Source: Thermoplasmata archaeon
GTDB lineage: Archaea > Thermoplasmatota > Penumbrarchaeia > JAEHCK01 > GCA-020356005
NCBI GenBank assembly: GCA_020356005.1
Contig: CP070629.1
Coordinates: 250,673-256,139, forward strand
Direction: 5' to 3'
Length of the DNA: 5,467 nucleotides
This document shows, in pieces, positions 1 through 5,467 of the stretch (position 1 is its first letter; each line of letters begins with the position of its first letter). Position numbers and translations under genes: made by a program. Below the pieces are notes generated by a model that saw nothing but the letters and a program-made list of their open reading frames with translations, ran no database searches and was not told the DNA's origin.

Positions 1-856
1 AAGGCGAGAGCGCATCGGTACCCTTGGGAATCATCCTGGTCTCCGATATCAACTGACTGGTTTTTTCTCCTGGTAAATGGCCGCCGTGGCCCGGCTTGGC
101 ACCCTGCCCTATTTTTATCTCCAGCGCCGCCACCTTCTTCAAATACGGCGGGTTGATGCCGAACCTACCGCTGGCTACCTCACTGTTGATAACCTTGCCG
201 TATTTGTAGAAATCCGGGTGCAGACCGCCTTCGCCGGTACCGACAAGTGTGCCTACCTCCATTGCTGCTTTGAATAATGCTATCTGGGCATTGTAGCTAA
301 TACTTCCAAGAGACATCTGGCCCACCATTATTGGTGTGTTCAATTCGATATTGGGTGGCAACTTTGTTTTGAAAACGATCTCATCTCCATTATCCTCAAA
401 ATCCAGCTTGGCAGGTTTCGCGCCCAAAAAGCACCTGGTCTCGATGGGTTCGCGCAGCGGATCGATGGCAGGGTTTGTTACCTGTGCCGCATCCAGGACC
501 AGATCATCAAAGATGCTCTGGTACGGCAGGTCGTTTCCGCAGGAGGTGAGCATAACACCGCCTGTTGAGGCCTGCTCCCACCCGATCCTTCGAATGCGCT
601 CATTGTAGGCAATGTGGACCGGGTATGCCATATCGTTATGCTTTATGGCGATAGCCTCCTGCGGGCATTTCATCGCACACCTCTGGCAGCCCACGCAGTT
701 ATCGTGATCAGAAATGATTCTTTCTCCATTGTATGATAAGGTATCAAAAGTACAGTTAACAGTGCAGCGCCGGCAGATCTTACACTTCTCCCTATCGATT
801 TCAACGATGAACCGTGGCGGGATATCCAATCTTATTCCTTCCATTTTCGCCGGCAT
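1..856 (-). CDS. gltB: Glutamate synthase (split, archaeal type) FMN/synthase domain protein with an N-terminal 2x[4Fe-4S] ferredoxin domain. It is partial because the 3' end runs off the left window edge.
   Basis: My own reverse-strand translation from ATG 856-854 is open down to position 2 (285 codons). It reads MPAKMEGIRLDIPPRFIVEIDREKCKICRRCTVNCTFDTLSYNGERIISDHDNCVGCQRCAMKCPQEAIAIKH...LNTPIMVGQMSLGSISYNAQIALFKAAMEVGTLVGTGEGG...EIKIGQGAKPGHGGHLPGEKTSQLISETRMIPKGTDALSP. Two CX2CX2CX3C(P) motifs are followed by the conserved GltB synthase-domain blocks (MSxGxxS, GEGG, QGAKPGxGGxLPG). A GGTGGAGG Shine-Dalgarno sits 8 nt upstream. An alternative start is ATG 844-842. The ORF is missing from the track only because no stop codon lies inside the window. 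Confidence 0.88.
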   Translation of the reverse strand, partial: MPAKMEGIRLDIPPRFIVEIDREKCKICRRCTVNCTFDTLSYNGERIISDHDNCVGCQRCAMKCPQEAIAIKHNDMAYPVHIAYNERIRRIGWEQASTGGVMLTSCGNDLPYQSIFDDLVLDAAQVTNPAIDPLREPIETRCFLGAKPAKLDFEDNGDEIVFKTKLPPNIELNTPIMVGQMSLGSISYNAQIALFKAAMEVGTLVGTGEGGLHPDFYKYGKVINSEVASGRFGINPPYLKKVAALEIKIGQGAKPGHGGHLPGEKTSQLISETRMIPKGTDALSP

Positions 857-859
857 ATT

Positions 860-2164
860 TCAGACCTCCACCTTCAACCGTTTGGATTCGAATTGATTTT
901 CGGTTCCTTTACTTATCAATCCGGTTTCAAGCTGGGCTATGACAGGATTACCAGTTACAGGCGCCCAGGTATTCTCAGTGCTTGTAACACGCTGGATTGC
1001 GCATTCCTCGCTGCTGGCGTACACCGTACCTCCGTCGTCGGAGGTTGCTGCGATCATCGGCCTCAGTTTCTTTCGATCTGTTAAGGCAATCATCGTGGGG
1101 TAAGGATTATTGGTACCCACGAGGATGCTGAAGGGGCCGTTCACCATAGCCCTTCCGTATGTCATCCGAAGCGCGGTGACGATCCTTTTTTGATCTTCGG
1201 AAAGCAATGCTATATCTTCAAAATAGGCCGGGGCCATAGCCATGGAAGCGATGCTGATCGGTAGTTTATGCCTCCTGCATAACAGATCCCACATGTAGGT
1301 TACAACCTCGGAATCCGTAAGAAGTGTACATTTGTAGCCCCACATCTCAACATAGCGTTTATTTGTACCGTAAGAAGTGATCTCTCCGTTATGACATAAC
1401 GACCAGTCCAGGATGTTGAAAGGATGAGCGCCGCCCCACCAACCGGGCGTGTTCGTGGGAAATCTCGAATGCGAGAGCCACATGTAGCCCTTGTACCGTT
1501 TCCTCAGATCATAGAAATCTGCTATTTCGTAGCTCCAGCCGTTACCTTTGAACACCGCCATGTTCTTACCTGAAGACATGCAGAATGCTCCGTCAATGGT
1601 AGAGTTCACTTGCATGACTACATCCACCATATAGTCATCAGCATTATCGATTGAGGGGTTGGCTTTCAGCTTTTTTTCCGGTACCTCCAGGAAAAATCGC
1701 CATATAAGTGGATAAGGCCCGCTCATTGTCTTTACCCCTCTCGTAAAAACCTTTTCATCTTTGATTATGTTGGTAATATCTTTAAAATACTCCTCAACCC
1801 GCGACTTTGCGGTTGTATCGTCAAGTAAAAGCTGTACACAGTACTTTCCTGCTAATTCTGGAAAGAGGCCGTAGCATGCATAACCTGCGCCCAGACCATT
1901 CTCACGATCTGTCATCGTGGTGATCATATCCACAACATCATTCCCATCAGTCCTCTTACCGTTGACATTGATCAGGCCGGCTATGCCGCAAGCTTCTATA
2001 TCCTTGCTGAAACCGTTGGGCGGGAGAGTTACACCGATCCTGCCCCGCTTGCCTTTTGATTCGCCTACCTCACCTATTCTTCCCAGAGGACTGTGCATCG
2101 AAAATCTCATTGAATTCAATGGCTCCCTGATATCATTATTCGTATTGTCATTGTCTTTGGTCAT
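860..2164 (-). CDS. gltB: Glutamate synthase glutamine amidotransferase domain protein (class II / Ntn-type GATase, GltB domain 1)
   Basis: This is a 434-aa ORF. It has a CGIAG nucleophile motif (Cys59). The blocks HSRFPTNTPGWWGGAHPF and LCHNGEITSYGTN match the conserved GltB amidotransferase blocks (HxRFSTNT...QPF and HNGEINTxxGN). The start ATG (2164-2162) overlaps the stop of the upstream gene as ATGA. The stop TGA (862-860) lies 3 nt before the next ATG. Confidence 0.9.
   Translation of the reverse strand: MTKDNDNTNNDIREPLNSMRFSMHSPLGRIGEVGESKGKRGRIGVTLPPNGFSKDIEACGIAGLINVNGKRTDGNDVVDMITTMTDRENGLGAGYACYGLFPELAGKYCVQLLLDDTTAKSRVEEYFKDITNIIKDEKVFTRGVKTMSGPYPLIWRFFLEVPEKKLKANPSIDNADDYMVDVVMQVNSTIDGAFCMSSGKNMAVFKGNGWSYEIADFYDLRKRYKGYMWLSHSRFPTNTPGWWGGAHPFNILDWSLCHNGEITSYGTNKRYVEMWGYKCTLLTDSEVVTYMWDLLCRRHKLPISIASMAMAPAYFEDIALLSEDQKRIVTALRMTYGRAMVNGPFSILVGTNNPYPTMIALTDRKKLRPMIAATSDDGGTVYASSEECAIQRVTSTENTWAPVTGNPVIAQLETGLISKGTENQFESKRLKVEV
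865..873 (-). promoter_or_regulatory. Shine-Dalgarno sequence for the ferredoxin-FMN gltB gene, embedded in the 3' end of the upstream CDS
   Basis: The minus strand reads AAGGTGGAGGTCTGAAATATG. The GGAGG core (869-865) lies 8 nt from ATG 856. Confidence 0.7.
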
Positions 2165-3522
2165 TTGTTACCCCTCACTACCTCTTCTACCAGTTTCCTG
2201 AATGCTTCGAGCTCAGGTCCCTTAATCTTATCAAGTCCCATTTTCTGGCGGAGTTCATTGTCGGGTTCAAAGGAATATGATGTATCCTGGAGACTTGCTC
2301 TCCTGTTCGCCACAACTTCGGGGAAAATTCCGTTTTGAACTGCAAGATTTTTCAGCCTAACCAGCAGCTTCACCATCCCGAAGTTCTGCGGGCAGTGCTG
2401 GATACATTCGTGGCAGTTCATGCAGTACCAGATGTCAGGTCGTTTGAGGGCTTCCTCTACCTTTCCACTCAGTACCAGGTCAAGAATCTCTTCGGGGTGA
2501 TACTCCGGAACCACCATTGCTGTTGAGCAGTCGTCTGTGCACGCTCGACACCCGGAGCAGATTTCAAGCTGTGAGGCCGTTACCTCACCCGAGTGCACTT
2601 CATGATCCTGCCCGGTGCTCAATATGTGTTCAACCACCGTTTCTTCAGTTCCTGAACTGAAATCGTAATGTATATTCATACCCATTTCTTCGGGTTCGAA
2701 ACCGAAGGCCACACCGATGAGCTGGGTAATGTAAAAAACAGGCAGCTCGATGCTGTCTGAATAGATATCGTTTACTTCCTTTATATTGCGGAAGAATTGA
2801 GCGAAGCAGTACGGGCAGTTGACAACCAGAGCTTCACCTCCGGAATCGAGAATTGACTTCAGCATTCTTCTTGCAGAGGGTGCGACATCATCCGAGCGGG
2901 CAATGGAAAGTCCACCGGAACAGCATGAGTGCTTCTCTGGATAAGAAATAACGTCGCCGCCAATCACCTTGACCAGGTCTTCCAGGTAATATGGCTTTTC
3001 CGGGTCGTCAAAGCCCATATGATCCATGGGTCTTTTTACATGGCAGCCAACAAAAGGTGCACATTTCAAATTTTTAAGTCGTTTATCAACTTTGGTATCA
3101 ATGGCATTTAAGCCAATATCATCATGGAGAACCTGCAGGATATGCTTTACATCGATGTCACCATGATATTCAAGCCCGAAATTTTTTAGTAATAGATTAA
3201 TCTCATTTTTAAATTTCTCATCGTTTTTGAGTCTTGAATTAATGGTTTTTAAGGTATCATAACATCCATTACACAAGGACAATATATCGTGGCCGTTTTG
3301 TTCCGCCAGACTAAGGTTTCGGGCTGCAAGAACCTCCCATAGCTCGTAACTTGAGCTCTGGATGGCCATCTGATTGGGACAGCAGCTGGCACCTTCAATG
3401 GCATGTAATTTTACTCCAAGCTTCTCAAGCACCATCCTGCTGGCTTTCTCTATGAACGGAAATTTGCTTGGAATCAAGCAGCCTGTAAACAATGAATATT
3501 CTTTTGAATCGCTTTTTATCAT
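2161..3522 (-). CDS. Heterodisulfide-reductase-like iron-sulfur protein: an HdrB-like half (two CCG domains) fused to a C-terminal HdrC-like 2x[4Fe-4S] ferredoxin half
   Basis: This is a 453-aa ORF. Counted motifs for CCG domain 1 are C15-X31-C47C48-X35-C84xxC87, and for CCG domain 2 are C160-X39-C200C201-X34-C236xxC239. The HdrB signature is CX31-39CCX35-36CXXC. The C-terminal half carries C322xxC325xxC328xxxC332 and C367xxC370xxC373xxxC377P, as in HdrC. The N-terminus YSLFTGCLIPSKFPFIE resembles HdrB N-termini. A GTGAT ribosome-binding-like motif lies upstream of the ATG. Confidence 0.85.
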   Translation of the reverse strand: MIKSDSKEYSLFTGCLIPSKFPFIEKASRMVLEKLGVKLHAIEGASCCPNQMAIQSSSYELWEVLAARNLSLAEQNGHDILSLCNGCYDTLKTINSRLKNDEKFKNEINLLLKNFGLEYHGDIDVKHILQVLHDDIGLNAIDTKVDKRLKNLKCAPFVGCHVKRPMDHMGFDDPEKPYYLEDLVKVIGGDVISYPEKHSCCSGGLSIARSDDVAPSARRMLKSILDSGGEALVVNCPYCFAQFFRNIKEVNDIYSDSIELPVFYITQLIGVAFGFEPEEMGMNIHYDFSSGTEETVVEHILSTGQDHEVHSGEVTASQLEICSGCRACTDDCSTAMVVPEYHPEEILDLVLSGKVEEALKRPDIWYCMNCHECIQHCPQNFGMVKLLVRLKNLAVQNGIFPEVVANRRASLQDTSYSFEPDNELRQKMGLDKIKGPELEAFRKLVEEVVRGNK

Positions 3523-3544
3523 ATTATCACACTGTATTCTGTTC

Positions 3545-3994
3545 TCAAATCTTTGGAATAAAGCTTTCTTTGACTATATTGAGCACTAATTTGGTTGATG
3601 TCCTGAGCACATATTTTTGACCTGCCAGTTCCTTGACGAACTTATTAAGTTCCTCGGTAGTCCGAAATTTTGTGACAAAAGTTGTATCATATTCACCGGT
3701 GACATCATAAACCGAGCAGACATTTTCATGCTTTGCGAATTTTGCCTGGACCTTTTCAAGGTGCCCTCCCTCGATCCTGATATCGATTAACGCACAGATA
3801 TCGTACCCGATTTCATGTGCATTTACTGCCGGAATTATTTTCGTGATTATATTCTCTTCTTTCATTCGCTTGATCCTGTTGTGGATAGTACCAACTGAAG
3901 TATCCACTTTTTTTGCGATACTTTCGTAGTTCATAGAGGCATCTTCTAAAAGGATTCGAAGAATACGTTTATCAATATCATCTAATACGTCCAT
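3545..3994 (-). CDS. Lrp/AsnC-family transcriptional regulator (N-terminal HTH plus C-terminal RAM/AsnC ligand-binding domain)
   Basis: This is a 149-aa ORF of typical Lrp size. The N-terminus DDIDKRILRILLEDASMNYESIAKKVDTSVGTIHNRIKRMKEENII is the canonical AsnC-type HTH. The C-terminal beta-alpha-beta-beta-alpha-beta-like segment (ALIDIRIEGGHLEKV...VCSVYDVTGEYDTTFVTKFRTTEELNKFV) matches the AsnC_trans_reg/RAM fold pattern. Only 22 nt separate its stop (3547-3545) from the next ATG (3522). Confidence 0.9.
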   Translation of the reverse strand: MDVLDDIDKRILRILLEDASMNYESIAKKVDTSVGTIHNRIKRMKEENIITKIIPAVNAHEIGYDICALIDIRIEGGHLEKVQAKFAKHENVCSVYDVTGEYDTTFVTKFRTTEELNKFVKELAGQKYVLRTSTKLVLNIVKESFIPKI

Positions 3995-4037
3995 TATATC
4001 ACGTTAATATTAATAAAAAGTGAGTATGTCGCCAATA

Positions 4038-4045
4038 CTATTTAA
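4038..4045 (-). promoter_or_regulatory. TATA-box candidate (TTAAATAG on the minus strand) for the lrp-hdrBC-gltB transcription unit
   Basis: This AT-rich octamer ends 43 nt before the lrp ATG. The identical octamer sits at an almost identical distance before the methyltransferase ATG. It implies a TSS near 4015 and a ~20-nt leader containing GTGAT. Confidence 0.35.
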
Positions 4046-4054
4046 TAATATTCA
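4044..4054. promoter_or_regulatory. 11-nt direct copy (AATAATATTCA) of the right part of the palindrome, abutting the TATA-like box; a candidate second regulator half-site
   Basis: AATAATATTCA occurs identically at 4044-4054 and 4075-4085, a 31-nt offset that is about three helical turns. It overlaps an everted repeat ATTCAT-CAAA-ATGAAT (4050-4065). Confidence 0.4.
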
Positions 4055-4071
4055 TCAAAATGAATTAAATG

Positions 4072-4086
4072 TTGAATAATATTCAA
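4072..4086. promoter_or_regulatory. Perfect 15-bp palindrome TTGAATA-A-TATTCAA, a candidate Lrp-family operator upstream of the lrp-led operon
   Basis: I verified the 7-nt arms base by base. The palindrome lies 78-92 nt upstream of the lrp ATG and ~27 nt upstream of the TATA-like octamer. Outer arms GTTGAA (4071-4076) and TTCAAC (4090-4095) form a second, overlapping inverted repeat. Confidence 0.5.
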
Positions 4087-4104
4087 TATTTCAACTATTT
4101 TATT

Positions 4105-4110
4105 AAAAAA
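4105..4110 (-). terminator. Second oligo-T (T6) termination signal downstream of the methyltransferase gene
   Basis: The A6 run on the + strand is T6 on the minus strand. It lies between the methyltransferase stop and the lrp promoter region. Confidence 0.35.
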
Positions 4111-4140
4111 TAATAAAGTGTTTAACTAAATCTCTGAATG

Positions 4141-4146
4141 AAAAAA
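4141..4146 (-). terminator. Oligo-T (T6) archaeal-type termination signal downstream of the methyltransferase gene
   Basis: The A6 run on the + strand is T6 on the coding strand. It starts 24 nt after the TAA stop (4172-4170). Confidence 0.45.
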
Positions 4147-4169
4147 CAATTTAATGGGATTTATTTGGA

Positions 4170-5036
4170 TTATTGAGGTTTTTTTGCTAGAATCATTATG
4201 TTGGACCTGTAATCCTTCAAGATTTTATTTAGAATAAATAATATTAGAGATGCACCTTTCTTTCCTTTGGCATAATCGCCGTATCTAAAATTGAATTTGT
4301 AAGAGTCCCAGCACATGCTCATCTCTATTTTTTCTATTCTGAAACCTGCCTTTTTCATTATATTAATGAGTTCTGTTTTATTGTATTCTCGAATATGAGT
4401 CCATGAATCGGTGATATGCCCTGAATTATTTTCTGAATCATATTTTAGGTCAAATGGTTCAAGAGGATTTCTTTTGAATATTATCATACCGATATTTGTG
4501 ATCCTGCAGAAGTTGGGAGTAGTTAATATTAAAAAACCTCCCGGTTTAATCAATTTTTTCAATTGAGTTAGAACCTTTACCGGTGAATCCCTAACATGTT
4601 CCAGGACTTCTCCGAACAAAATAATATCGAAAAATTCATTTTTAAAAGGTAATTTTGATTTGGTCAAATCGAGATCCTTGATCGGAATACCTTCATTAAG
4701 AGGTAAGACACAATTTTTTTCAATCCTGCTGGCAAGCTCCGTGCCGTACATCTGATATCCTATTCTTTTTAAAATCACATCATGCAATCCGTAAGATATC
4801 CCGATATCAAGGATATTTAATTTTTTATTGAGGGCCATATCAGGAACCAAAGAAAGCGTGTCGATATATCGGTCCATGTTTTTGTCAACATATTCCTGGA
4901 CATGCTTGATGCTCTCGGTTGAAAAATTTTTTAAATTGATCTCTTGTTCGGCCAGTGTTAAGGTTTGTTTTCGTAGATAATCAGCGAATTCTTTTTGGTT
5001 TTTAAATTGAGTAACAACATTTTTATGTTTTACCAT
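4170..5036 (-). CDS. Class I SAM-dependent methyltransferase (Methyltransf_11/23-like), substrate unknown
   Basis: This is a 288-aa ORF. Rossmann-fold methyltransferase motifs are present: motif I-like LNILDIGISYG (a slightly degenerate GxGxG), a post-I acidic residue in YGTELA, motif II FDIILFGEVLEHV, and motif III LIKPGGFLILTTPN. The gene is visibly more AT-rich than the gltB genes. Confidence 0.8.
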   Translation of the reverse strand: MVKHKNVVTQFKNQKEFADYLRKQTLTLAEQEINLKNFSTESIKHVQEYVDKNMDRYIDTLSLVPDMALNKKLNILDIGISYGLHDVILKRIGYQMYGTELASRIEKNCVLPLNEGIPIKDLDLTKSKLPFKNEFFDIILFGEVLEHVRDSPVKVLTQLKKLIKPGGFLILTTPNFCRITNIGMIIFKRNPLEPFDLKYDSENNSGHITDSWTHIREYNKTELINIMKKAGFRIEKIEMSMCWDSYKFNFRYGDYAKGKKGASLILFILNKILKDYRSNIMILAKKPQ

Positions 5037-5080
5037 CTAGACACTTTTGTAATAAATGGATAATAGCCTTTTAAATTTTT

Positions 5081-5088
5081 CTATTTAA
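5081..5088 (-). promoter_or_regulatory. TATA-box candidate (TTAAATAG on the minus strand) for the methyltransferase gene
   Basis: The same octamer occurs upstream of lrp. It ends 44 nt before ATG 5036. A T6 run (5091-5096, minus strand) lies immediately upstream and could terminate read-in transcription from the right. Confidence 0.35.
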
Positions 5089-5121
5089 GCAAAAAATATG
5101 ATTCGTTTTAGATATTATAAA

Positions 5122-5134
5122 TGAATGATATTCA
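5122..5134. promoter_or_regulatory. Palindromic box TGAAT-GAT-ATTCA, a 12/13 match to the core of the lrp-upstream palindrome
   Basis: TGAATGATATTCA (5122-5134) differs from TGAATAATATTCA (4073-4085) at a single position. It lies ~34 nt upstream of the methyltransferase TATA candidate, and also just downstream of a + strand TATA-like TTATAAAT (5115-5122). Confidence 0.4.
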
Positions 5135-5149
5135 GGTTGCATTTCATTA

Positions 5150-5446
5150 ATTCTCTCACTCCTCACCTCTCGCCTCTCCGAAGGGCACTGCCTCCTGCCA
5201 GTGCTAAAGATCGATAAATAAGCTCCGTACGCAGGACGGGGGCGACTAAAATTGATGACAAGAGCTGAGCTTTCTGCCGAGGTCAGGTTTAACTACCATC
5301 GAAGAAATCAATATAATTGAACAAAATCGAGATTAATGCTCCGACTGAGCCTGTAAGGCGAGGGAGGGGGCGAGGCACAGCCGAGCGTCGGAGGTATGGG
5401 CTATTGAGCGTAGCGAAATGCCCGCCATTTACGGGCTGCGCTTTTC
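5150..5446. other. GC-rich, apparently non-coding segment with multiple hairpins. It may be an unidentified structured RNA, a relic or a mobile-element fragment.
   Basis: There is an abrupt switch from AT-rich spacer to GC-rich sequence at ~5150. No ATG-initiated ORF reaches 60 aa in any frame. The left part (5152-5180) is a pyrimidine-rich tract and the right part (5357-5376) is a purine-rich tract. I verified at least four hairpins by hand (see findings). Confidence 0.35.
5407..5445 (+). terminator. Two-tier hairpin followed by TTTT, a terminator-like structure in + orientation
   Basis: AGCGTA (5407-5412) pairs with TGCGCT (5437-5442), including one G-U. GCCCG (5420-5424) pairs with CGGGC (5432-5436), with the loop CCATTTA. 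T4 follows at 5442-5445. No T-run follows the hairpin on the minus strand. Confidence 0.3.
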
Positions 5447-5467
5447 GAGGAACAAAGTCATTGATTC

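Follow-up and report, generated by a model that had tools for sequence, protein, structure and literature searches.

The stretch of DNA analysed here (5,467 nucleotides (nt), hereafter the window) belongs to a Thermoplasmata archaeon (assembly GCA_020356005.1, contig CP070629.1, positions 250,673-256,139 of the forward strand) and carries a gene for a single-chain fusion of an HdrB-like and an HdrC-like protein directly ahead of genes for a glutamate synthase (GOGAT). According to the list of open reading frames (ORFs), all genes of interest are located on the minus strand. An operon of four genes, headed by this fusion and continuing with genes for a glutamine amidotransferase, a ferredoxin-FMN (flavin mononucleotide) synthase subunit and a GXGXG subunit, is conserved over two domains of life and at least five phyla. 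The association between the fusion and GOGAT is very robust and phylogenetically broad.

Conservation of the fusion-led operon

A search of 5.8 billion proteins yielded 763 relatives of the fusion at E<=1e-10. The best 120 of these relatives originated from Thermoplasmata, Methanomassiliicoccales-labelled, Asgard, Altiarchaeota-labelled and Actinobacteria metagenome-assembled genomes (MAGs), and 112 of the 120 were full-length fusions (at least 420 amino acids (aa)) in which the HdrB-like part precedes the HdrC-like part. Gene order was compared at 22 independent fusion loci, consisting of 6 contigs and 16 loci from a species-level genome collection (31-65% identity), which cover Thermoplasmata, Actinomycetota (Gaiellales, Thermoleophilia, Coriobacteriia, Anoxymicrobiaceae), Freyarchaeota and Altiarchaeota. 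An amidotransferase gene was located directly downstream of the fusion gene and on the same strand at 22/22 loci, and intact ferredoxin-FMN and GXGXG genes were also found downstream at 20/22, so that the synteny with GOGAT-domain genes anticipated in a preliminary description of the window was indeed observed. At a further locus, L012, all three downstream genes are present and broken by apparent frameshifts. Such apparent frameshifts split the fusion, amidotransferase or FMN genes of three long-read-derived Actinomycetes MAGs (L012, L023 and L059) and are probably assembly errors rather than signs of pseudogenes.

Among the 20 intact loci, the junction between the fusion and amidotransferase genes consisted of an overlap of 1-20 nt or a gap of at most 15 nt in 15 cases, and of a 74-nt overlap or gaps of 52-91 nt in the other five. 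The layout of the fusion operon was found at none of 64 canonical loci with hdrC followed by hdrB, which made up the rest of the same genome-collection scan. The distance matrices of the four proteins correlated pairwise with r=0.91-0.95, and in a Mantel test 0 of 2000 permutations reached the observed value; therefore, the four genes travel together across the archaeal/bacterial divide. The mean pairwise identity amounted to 41% for the fusion versus 64% for the FMN subunit. One locus labelled 'Slackia heliotrinireducens' (L011) was considered as coming from a cultured carrier and was rejected as such, as its cluster holds MAG/metagenome members only.

The fusion protein and its gene neighbours

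Pfam recognized two CCG stretches in the fusion (PF02754, E=3.5e-23) followed by a Fer4 dicluster domain at aa 319-381, as well as PF00310 in the amidotransferase gene (1.9e-10) and PF01645 in the FMN gene (2e-49), which is the domain content that the preliminary description had predicted. Among the NCBIfam models, HdrB (TIGR03288) matched aa 8-285 (4e-78) and HdrC (TIGR03290) aa 320-448 (9e-16), and neither match reached its equivalog cut-off (262.6 versus 345 bits and 58.1 versus 160 bits, respectively). SdhE, the anchor of methylmenaquinol:fumarate reductase, was obtained as a secondary match (1.7e-40). In a sequence search of the PDB, the N-terminal half matched HdrB chains with E=2e-66 to 1e-54 and the C-terminal half HdrC chains with about 1e-10 (5odc_C, E=4e-11). 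An AlphaFold2 model of the fusion had a mean predicted local distance difference test score (pLDDT) of 77, with aa 303-315 below 50, indicating a disordered linker. Its HdrB half superimposed on 8rwn_B/5odc_B with a target-normalised TM-score of 0.92 and a root-mean-square deviation of 1.9-2.0 A, and its C-terminal part, which shows the ferredoxin-like domain and helical extension of HdrC, was matched to HdrC by Foldseek (5odc_I, TMt 0.56). By profile, PDB-sequence and fold searches the N-terminal half is thus nearest to genuine HdrB, as presumed earlier, and not to SdhE, LutA or GlcF. No membrane-spanning segment was detected (maximum Kyte-Doolittle mean over 19 residues of 1.45).

The HdrB-like half contains the CCG cysteines C15, C47C48 and C84xxC87 as well as C160, C200C201 and C236xxC239, in accordance with the HdrB pattern CX31-39CCX35-36CXXC, and the HdrC-like half contains C322xxC325xxC328xxxC332 and C367xxC370xxC373xxxC377. 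All 10 CCG and 8 HdrC cysteines were invariant in 112/112 full-length family members and also in an alignment of 16 sequences reaching 32% identity. Pfam, NCBIfam and the cysteine positions therefore agree with the two complete CCG signatures and the subsequent HdrC-like motif pair that had been described for the 453-aa protein; both CX2CX2CX3C motifs are invariant, but the proline noted after them is missing from the first motif of the window protein, which ends in CS and not in CP. C87 and C239 align with the bridging Cys81 and Cys234 of HdrB in 5ODC. Such bridging ligands distinguish catalytic noncubane clusters from those of EtfD, which are non-catalytic (PMC13083937). Judged by its sequence, the fusion clearly combines a catalytic-type HdrB site with an HdrC dicluster on a single polypeptide.

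The partner genes are, judging from their domains, those of a typical domain-split ('archaeal-type') glutamate synthase, for which a 2021 review describes the archaeal genes only as ORFs for individual GltS domains (PMC8097209). In the FMN subunit, PF01645 lies behind two 4Fe-4S motifs, and the 8 cysteines of this N-terminal ferredoxin domain are conserved in the homologues, whose full-length versions comprise 497-531 aa and are followed by the GXGXG gene. The FMN gene of the window is incomplete, and the GXGXG gene (PF01493), which the preliminary description had expected beyond the left edge, was found directly downstream of the FMN gene at the homologous loci counted above; for the contig that contains the window, such a gene is predicted from these loci. 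Close to the C-terminus of the FMN subunits of L002-L023 (e.g., L002:12668-14203), a CX2CX2CX4C motif is conserved (e.g., C420, C423, C426, C431); it presumably holds the cluster next to FMN, and its spacing differs from that of the [3Fe-4S] ligands of bacterial GltB.

Homologues of the amidotransferase are named 'glutamate synthase domain-containing protein 1'. Its catalytic Cys59 is located within EACGIAG, and a CG[IL]xG motif is conserved in all loci. In the NCBI record of the same genome, the amidotransferase has 412 aa (P0121), corresponding by length to a start at M23, the second internal ATG. As homologues conserve the sequence upstream of M23 and a Shine-Dalgarno-like GAGGGGT run precedes the ATG at 2164, we retained the long form and with it the ATGA overlap. 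This overlap and the 3-nt gap to the FMN gene (TGA, then AAT, then ATG at 856), both pointed out before, are present in the sequence, the former contingent on the choice of start codon. In Thermoplasmata, the catalytic cysteine is positioned behind an extension of 50-58 aa (aa 1-58, window 1991-2164, in the protein studied here) with the conserved motif GRIGVTLPPNGF-KDIEACGIAG, and in other lineages the extension comprises 7-50 aa. Such an extension would imply propeptide removal or a structural role.

Table 1. Features of the 5,467-nt window and the evidence on which each assignment is based.
Feature	Positions	Strand	Basis or remark
Methyltransferase gene	4170-5036	-	Pfam
AT-rich imperfect palindromes (inverted repeats I1-I4) upstream of the Lrp gene	4039-4117	.	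candidate operator/promoter region
Lrp/AsnC-family regulator gene	3545-3994	-	PF13404/PF01037; 22 nt upstream of fusion gene
HdrB-then-HdrC fusion gene, 453 aa, first structural gene of the operon	2161-3522	-	ORF, Pfam, NCBIfam
HdrB-like half, aa 8-285, two CCG motifs	2668-3501	-	ligands for two noncubane [4Fe-4S] clusters
Linker joining the two halves, aa 286-318, variable and in part disordered in the AlphaFold2 model	2569-2667	-	poorly conserved columns; low pLDDT
HdrC-like half, aa 319-448, two CX2CX2CX3C motifs	2179-2568	-	ligands for two cubane [4Fe-4S] clusters
ATGA stop/start overlap of fusion and amidotransferase genes	2161-2164	-	sequence
Class-II (N-terminal nucleophile, Ntn) glutamine amidotransferase gene, 434 aa	860-2164	-	PF00310
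FMN/synthase subunit gene, 5' part (285 codons), running off the left edge	1-856	-	PF01645
2x[4Fe-4S] ferredoxin domain, aa 17-74 of the FMN subunit	635-808	-	Fer4 family matches

The fusion encoded in the window is 100% identical to P0001 from a Thermoplasmata archaeon MAG. As stated in the preliminary description, no GltD-like gene is present in the window, the other genes there being those for the Lrp/AsnC regulator and, according to Pfam, the methyltransferase. The palindromes upstream of the regulator gene include TTGAATATTATTCAA, and a TATA-like TTTTTATTAATA is located about 15 nt before its ATG; together they may serve as an Lrp operator and as the promoter for a leaderless transcript. 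A promoter and terminator scan with bacterial consensus sequences returned sites no more numerous than in shuffled controls. The G+C content is about 0.45-0.52 over positions 1-3000, which extend from the GOGAT genes into the 3' half of the fusion gene, and falls to 0.27-0.41 over 3000-5467; the shift is located inside the fusion gene, near 2900-3000.

At many loci glnA adjoins the cluster, in Thermoplasmata an Lrp/AsnC gene does so, and Amt-PII and NAD synthase genes occur at Asgard loci. In L001-L003 and L009, an Lrp/AsnC gene is located immediately upstream with the same orientation as the operon; in L007 and L010 it is divergent. The neighbouring glnA, Amt-PII and Lrp genes indicate an assimilatory role. 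No GltD gene was present at seven loci with gene tables reaching past GXGXG, the wider set having been left without a GltD query, and the gene tables of nine fusion loci contained no gene for HdrA, MvhD or another flavoprotein. At one locus from Lokiarchaeon CR_4 (L091:1-6000), the operon is flanked by Amt-PII genes and, at this locus only, by a gene with pyridine-nucleotide-disulfide-oxidoreductase dimerisation, rhodanese and TusA domains, a possible clue to a sulfur or thiol partner. A different arrangement occurs in Armatimonadota and an uncultured bacterium (L063:406-12854, also L077 and L082), consisting of MTHFR, two GltS-FMN-like genes, a glutamine amidotransferase (GATase)/GXGXG fusion keeping the catalytic cysteine, hdrC, hdrB and a gene for an HdrA/GltD-like flavoprotein of 1498 aa. 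This cluster may encode an electron-bifurcating GOGAT-like complex.

Proposed electron input into the glutamate synthase

For domain-split GOGAT, no physiological electron donor is to our knowledge established. The reading that we favour, if tentatively, is that the fusion is a dedicated fourth GOGAT subunit and serves as an electron-input module oxidizing a thiol-type donor. The complex would consist of the fusion, the amidotransferase, the ferredoxin-FMN synthase subunit and the GXGXG subunit, and would contain one electron wire made up of the four clusters of the fusion, the two of the ferredoxin domain of the FMN subunit and the one next to FMN. The donor oxidized at the HdrB site would be a thiol, either of low molecular weight or carried by a protein, or else a persulfide, with CoM-SH/CoB-SH (coenzyme M and coenzyme B) excepted; two electrons would run down the wire to FMN, and FMN would reduce the 2-iminoglutarate formed from 2-oxoglutarate and glutamine-derived ammonia. 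The physical complex, the direction of electron flow and the nature of the donor are what we infer here. That the Hdr-like protein is the electron-entry module of the GOGAT had already been proposed in the preliminary description, and this part has gained support from the synteny, the HdrB-type site and the lack of a linked GltD gene at seven loci, whereas the CoM-SH/CoB-SH donor named along with it has not.

The couple 2-oxoglutarate + NH4+/glutamate has a potential (E0') of about -140 mV, which rises to about -70 mV with glutamine hydrolysis, and thiol couples range from -140 to -270 mV. With an acceptor couple near -70 mV, thiols at these potentials can therefore drive the reaction. A thiol donor would spare ferredoxin in energy-limited anaerobes. 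The thiol:fumarate reductase TfrAB oxidizes thiols at its CCG module to reduce fumarate, and the proposed enzyme would be its glutamate-synthase counterpart. A precedent for a swappable fourth input subunit is the FrhB-like 'subunit 4' of the Methanothermobacter GOGAT (PMC3087415). The wider claim, that the operon represents a new glutamate synthase class which takes its reductant from thiols or persulfides at an HdrB-type noncubane pair and is widespread in energy-limited anaerobes (Asgard, Thermoplasmata, anaerobic Actinomycetota), is conceivable and in our view more doubtful than not.

In HdrB structure 5ODR, CoM and CoB are held by R14, G46, G198, R201 and R240 (PMC13261682). In the fusion family, the position of R14 is occupied by K/R, so that the charge is kept, G46 is replaced by M/T/F and G198 by L/F, R201 falls into a gap and R240 is not conserved. 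The hosts of the family are mostly non-methanogens, e.g., Actinomycetota and Asgard archaea. As a converse approach, the loci of four amidotransferase homologues of 53-58% identity were inspected. Two Asgard loci found in this way carry the fusion upstream, in one case annotated by NCBI as 'heterodisulfide reductase, B/C subunit'. Two Methanomassiliicoccales loci (L089:6001-9787 and L090:3754-7312) harbour a GOGAT of the same clade as three genes without the fusion; in L090, methanol methyltransferase genes (MtaB and a B12-binding partner) are located nearby. The fusion is thus missing precisely where CoM and CoB are available. Given that the hosts are mostly non-methanogens, that the binding pocket is not conserved and that the methanogenic Methanomassiliicoccales have this GOGAT without the fusion, CoM-SH/CoB-SH is rejected as a general donor and is, contrary to the preliminary description, an unlikely one.

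In a midpoint-rooted neighbour-joining tree of the amidotransferase and FMN subunits, calculated with no outgroup, the fusion-less GOGATs were sister to the fusion-bearing Thermoplasmata clade and nested within the fusion-bearing diversity. This weakly suggests that Methanomassiliicoccales may have lost the fusion secondarily. As a related GOGAT exists without it, the fusion is an accessory module of one GOGAT clade.

Several observations weigh against the proposed oxidation of a thiol by a dedicated fourth subunit. The Methanomassiliicoccales GOGAT without the fusion implies that the core enzyme works with another donor, presumably ferredoxin via its own 2x[4Fe-4S] domain. No gene for thiol biosynthesis or for a disulfide reductase was consistently linked to the cluster. 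All well-studied HdrBC modules accept electrons downstream of a flavoprotein and do not donate them, and the Armatimonadota cluster, in which hdrC, hdrB and the gene for an HdrA-like flavoprotein accompany GOGAT-domain genes, fits a role of HdrBC as wire or acceptor. Finally, at one locus (L001) the fusion gene is followed by the amidotransferase gene, with neither an FMN nor a GXGXG gene within 10 kb. In this complete Thermoplasmata genome (CP070672.1; L001:10001-15443), the order is Lrp, fusion and amidotransferase, followed by NosD/beta-helix genes, and the remaining subunits, if present, are located elsewhere.

The main rival reading, to which we give an appreciably smaller chance, is that the fusion is an adaptor which wires the FMN subunit to an unlinked HdrA-, MvhD- or other flavoprotein/hydrogenase-type partner. 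The reduction of 2-oxoglutarate with glutamine, at about -70 mV, would then be the high-potential acceptor branch in place of heterodisulfide, possibly as part of flavin-based electron bifurcation. In all characterised HdrABC complexes HdrA feeds electrons to HdrC, the gene arrangement of L063, L077 and L082 places GOGAT-domain genes beside hdrC, hdrB and the 1498-aa flavoprotein gene, and CCG modules can be pure wires, as in EtfD. The absence of flavoprotein genes from the nine gene tables counts against such an adaptor, as does the complete catalytic cysteine set, which includes the bridging cysteines lost by EtfD-type wires and would be needless for a wire. A pure wire of the EtfD type is made less likely by this same retained set.

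Four other readings are less likely than the adaptor. The HdrB site might act in reverse and reduce a disulfide, fed either by reduced ferredoxin via the ferredoxin domain of the FMN subunit, as a branch or safety valve, or by glutamate oxidation in peptide fermenters, which are among the host lineages. Disulfide reduction is the sole activity demonstrated for HdrB-type sites; nevertheless, we regard this direction as improbable, as the amidotransferase catalytic cysteine is retained, the position beside glnA, Amt-PII and Lrp genes points to assimilation and GOGAT is effectively irreversible owing to glutamine hydrolysis. Slightly less probable still is a redox sensor or regulatory subunit, whose exposed noncubane clusters would report thiol/disulfide or oxygen status and gate the flow to FMN without net turnover. 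The fusion is indeed accessory, absent from the sister GOGAT clade and faster evolving than the catalytic subunits, as seen from the mean identities given above; yet a regulatory HdrBC is without precedent, and that the 18 cysteines and the HdrB fold have been strictly conserved despite divergence at the domain level suggests a role in catalysis or electron transfer. An input from menaquinol, with the CCG half docking on the membrane as proposed for SdhE, GlpC and GlcF-type proteins, could draw on the secondary SdhE match and is very unlikely. HdrB is by far the closer relative in both the profile and the PDB search, and menaquinol at about -74 mV would provide essentially no driving force. 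A membrane or quinone role was rejected based on the much better HdrB match and on the lack of a hydrophobic segment. Least probable of all is that the genes are conserved neighbours without any functional coupling. The incomplete set of genes in L001 and the related GOGATs that function without the fusion would fit this, but it is hard to reconcile with the strict gene order on the same strand, the mostly overlapping or nearly abutting ORFs and the co-inheritance over two domains of life and at least five phyla.

Relation to known systems and implications

The best match of the fusion in sequence and structure is HdrB/HdrC of HdrABC-MvhAGD (5ODC, 8RVU, 7BKB), with which it shares both folds, the ten CCG cysteines including the bridging ones and both CX2CX2CX3C motifs. 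It differs in being a single B-then-C polypeptide with GOGAT-domain partner genes and no linked HdrA/Mvh, in having the G46, G198, R201 and R240 contacts replaced or unconserved, and in its mostly non-methanogenic hosts. By the curated scores, the substrate residues, the partner and the host, the fusion is predicted to stand outside CoB-CoM heterodisulfide reductase proper. With HdrD of HdrDE, GlcF, GlpC and the soluble domains of EtfD, the fusion has in common a ferredoxin-type dicluster and a double CCG domain in one polypeptide. In these proteins the ferredoxin part is N-terminal and the CCG part C-terminal, whereas the order in the fusion is reversed (CCG at aa 8-285, ferredoxin part at aa 319-448), and it is because of this inverted order that the fusion is not HdrD-like. 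Unlike the HdrD-type systems it has neither a membrane partner nor a haem subunit, and its family keeps the catalytic ligand set which EtfD has lost.

Thiol:fumarate reductase is the functional analogy that we propose for the fusion and its GOGAT, with a different acceptor enzyme (fumarate reductase versus GOGAT). TfrAB of Methanothermobacter has a CCG module on a biosynthetic flavoenzyme, and its thiol-driven reduction feeds glutamate-family biosynthesis. TfrB, which is paired with the flavoprotein TfrA, is the iron-sulfur subunit of the fumarate reductase that serves as acceptor enzyme, has a 2Fe-2S and ferredoxin part ahead of its C-terminal CCG domains and uses CoM-SH and CoB-SH as donor. 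The fusion matched the TfrB model NF004898 with 2.5e-13 and 49.5 bits (cut-off 385), only the CCG region being aligned (aa 5-268 to profile positions 260-483), and no TfrA gene was linked to the fusion cluster.

The F420-dependent GOGAT of methanogens (PMC3087415; putative FGltS groups, PMC9012536) resembles the fusion operon in that a split, archaeal-type GOGAT has recruited an extra input subunit or domain, but its input module is FrhB-like, with F420, flavin adenine dinucleotide (FAD) and one 4Fe-4S cluster, and that of the fusion operon is HdrBC-like and without flavin. NADPH-GOGAT (GltBD) and the ferredoxin-GOGAT of plants and cyanobacteria share the amidotransferase, FMN/synthase and GXGXG modules with the fusion operon, and their glutamine-dependent reductive amination of 2-oxoglutarate is assumed to take place here as well. 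Unlike in these enzymes, the modules are encoded by separate genes in the fusion operon, the FMN subunit starts with a 2x[4Fe-4S] domain, GltD is lacking and an HdrBC-like protein is added as fourth subunit.

The inverted B-then-C order highlighted in the preliminary description is real and unusual, although the B/C fusion itself is already labelled 'heterodisulfide reductase, B/C subunit' in some public records and its halves belong to the known HdrB and HdrC superfamilies. What is new is that an Hdr-type catalytic module is combined with GOGAT. The literature searched contained no account of HdrBC being coupled to GOGAT, in line with the earlier statement that no such coupling was known to be characterised; papers that looked relevant dealt with GltD domains, with F420-type GOGAT or with Hdr clusters of another kind.

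For a large group of uncultured anaerobes, the conserved and co-inherited HdrBC-like subunit represents a concrete candidate for the module through which electrons enter GOGAT. If the donor is indeed a thiol, the operon would encode a new GOGAT class in which nitrogen assimilation is tied to the thiol/disulfide or sulfur pool of the cell, and it would provide, after thiol:fumarate reductase, a second example of an HdrB site working oxidatively for biosynthesis. Low-grade reducing power from thiols, and not ferredoxin or NAD(P)H, would in that case cover the cost of assimilating nitrogen. The finding also means that hdr genes in the genomes of non-methanogens, including Asgard archaea, are not automatically markers of energy metabolism, as some of them are part of an amino-acid biosynthesis operon.

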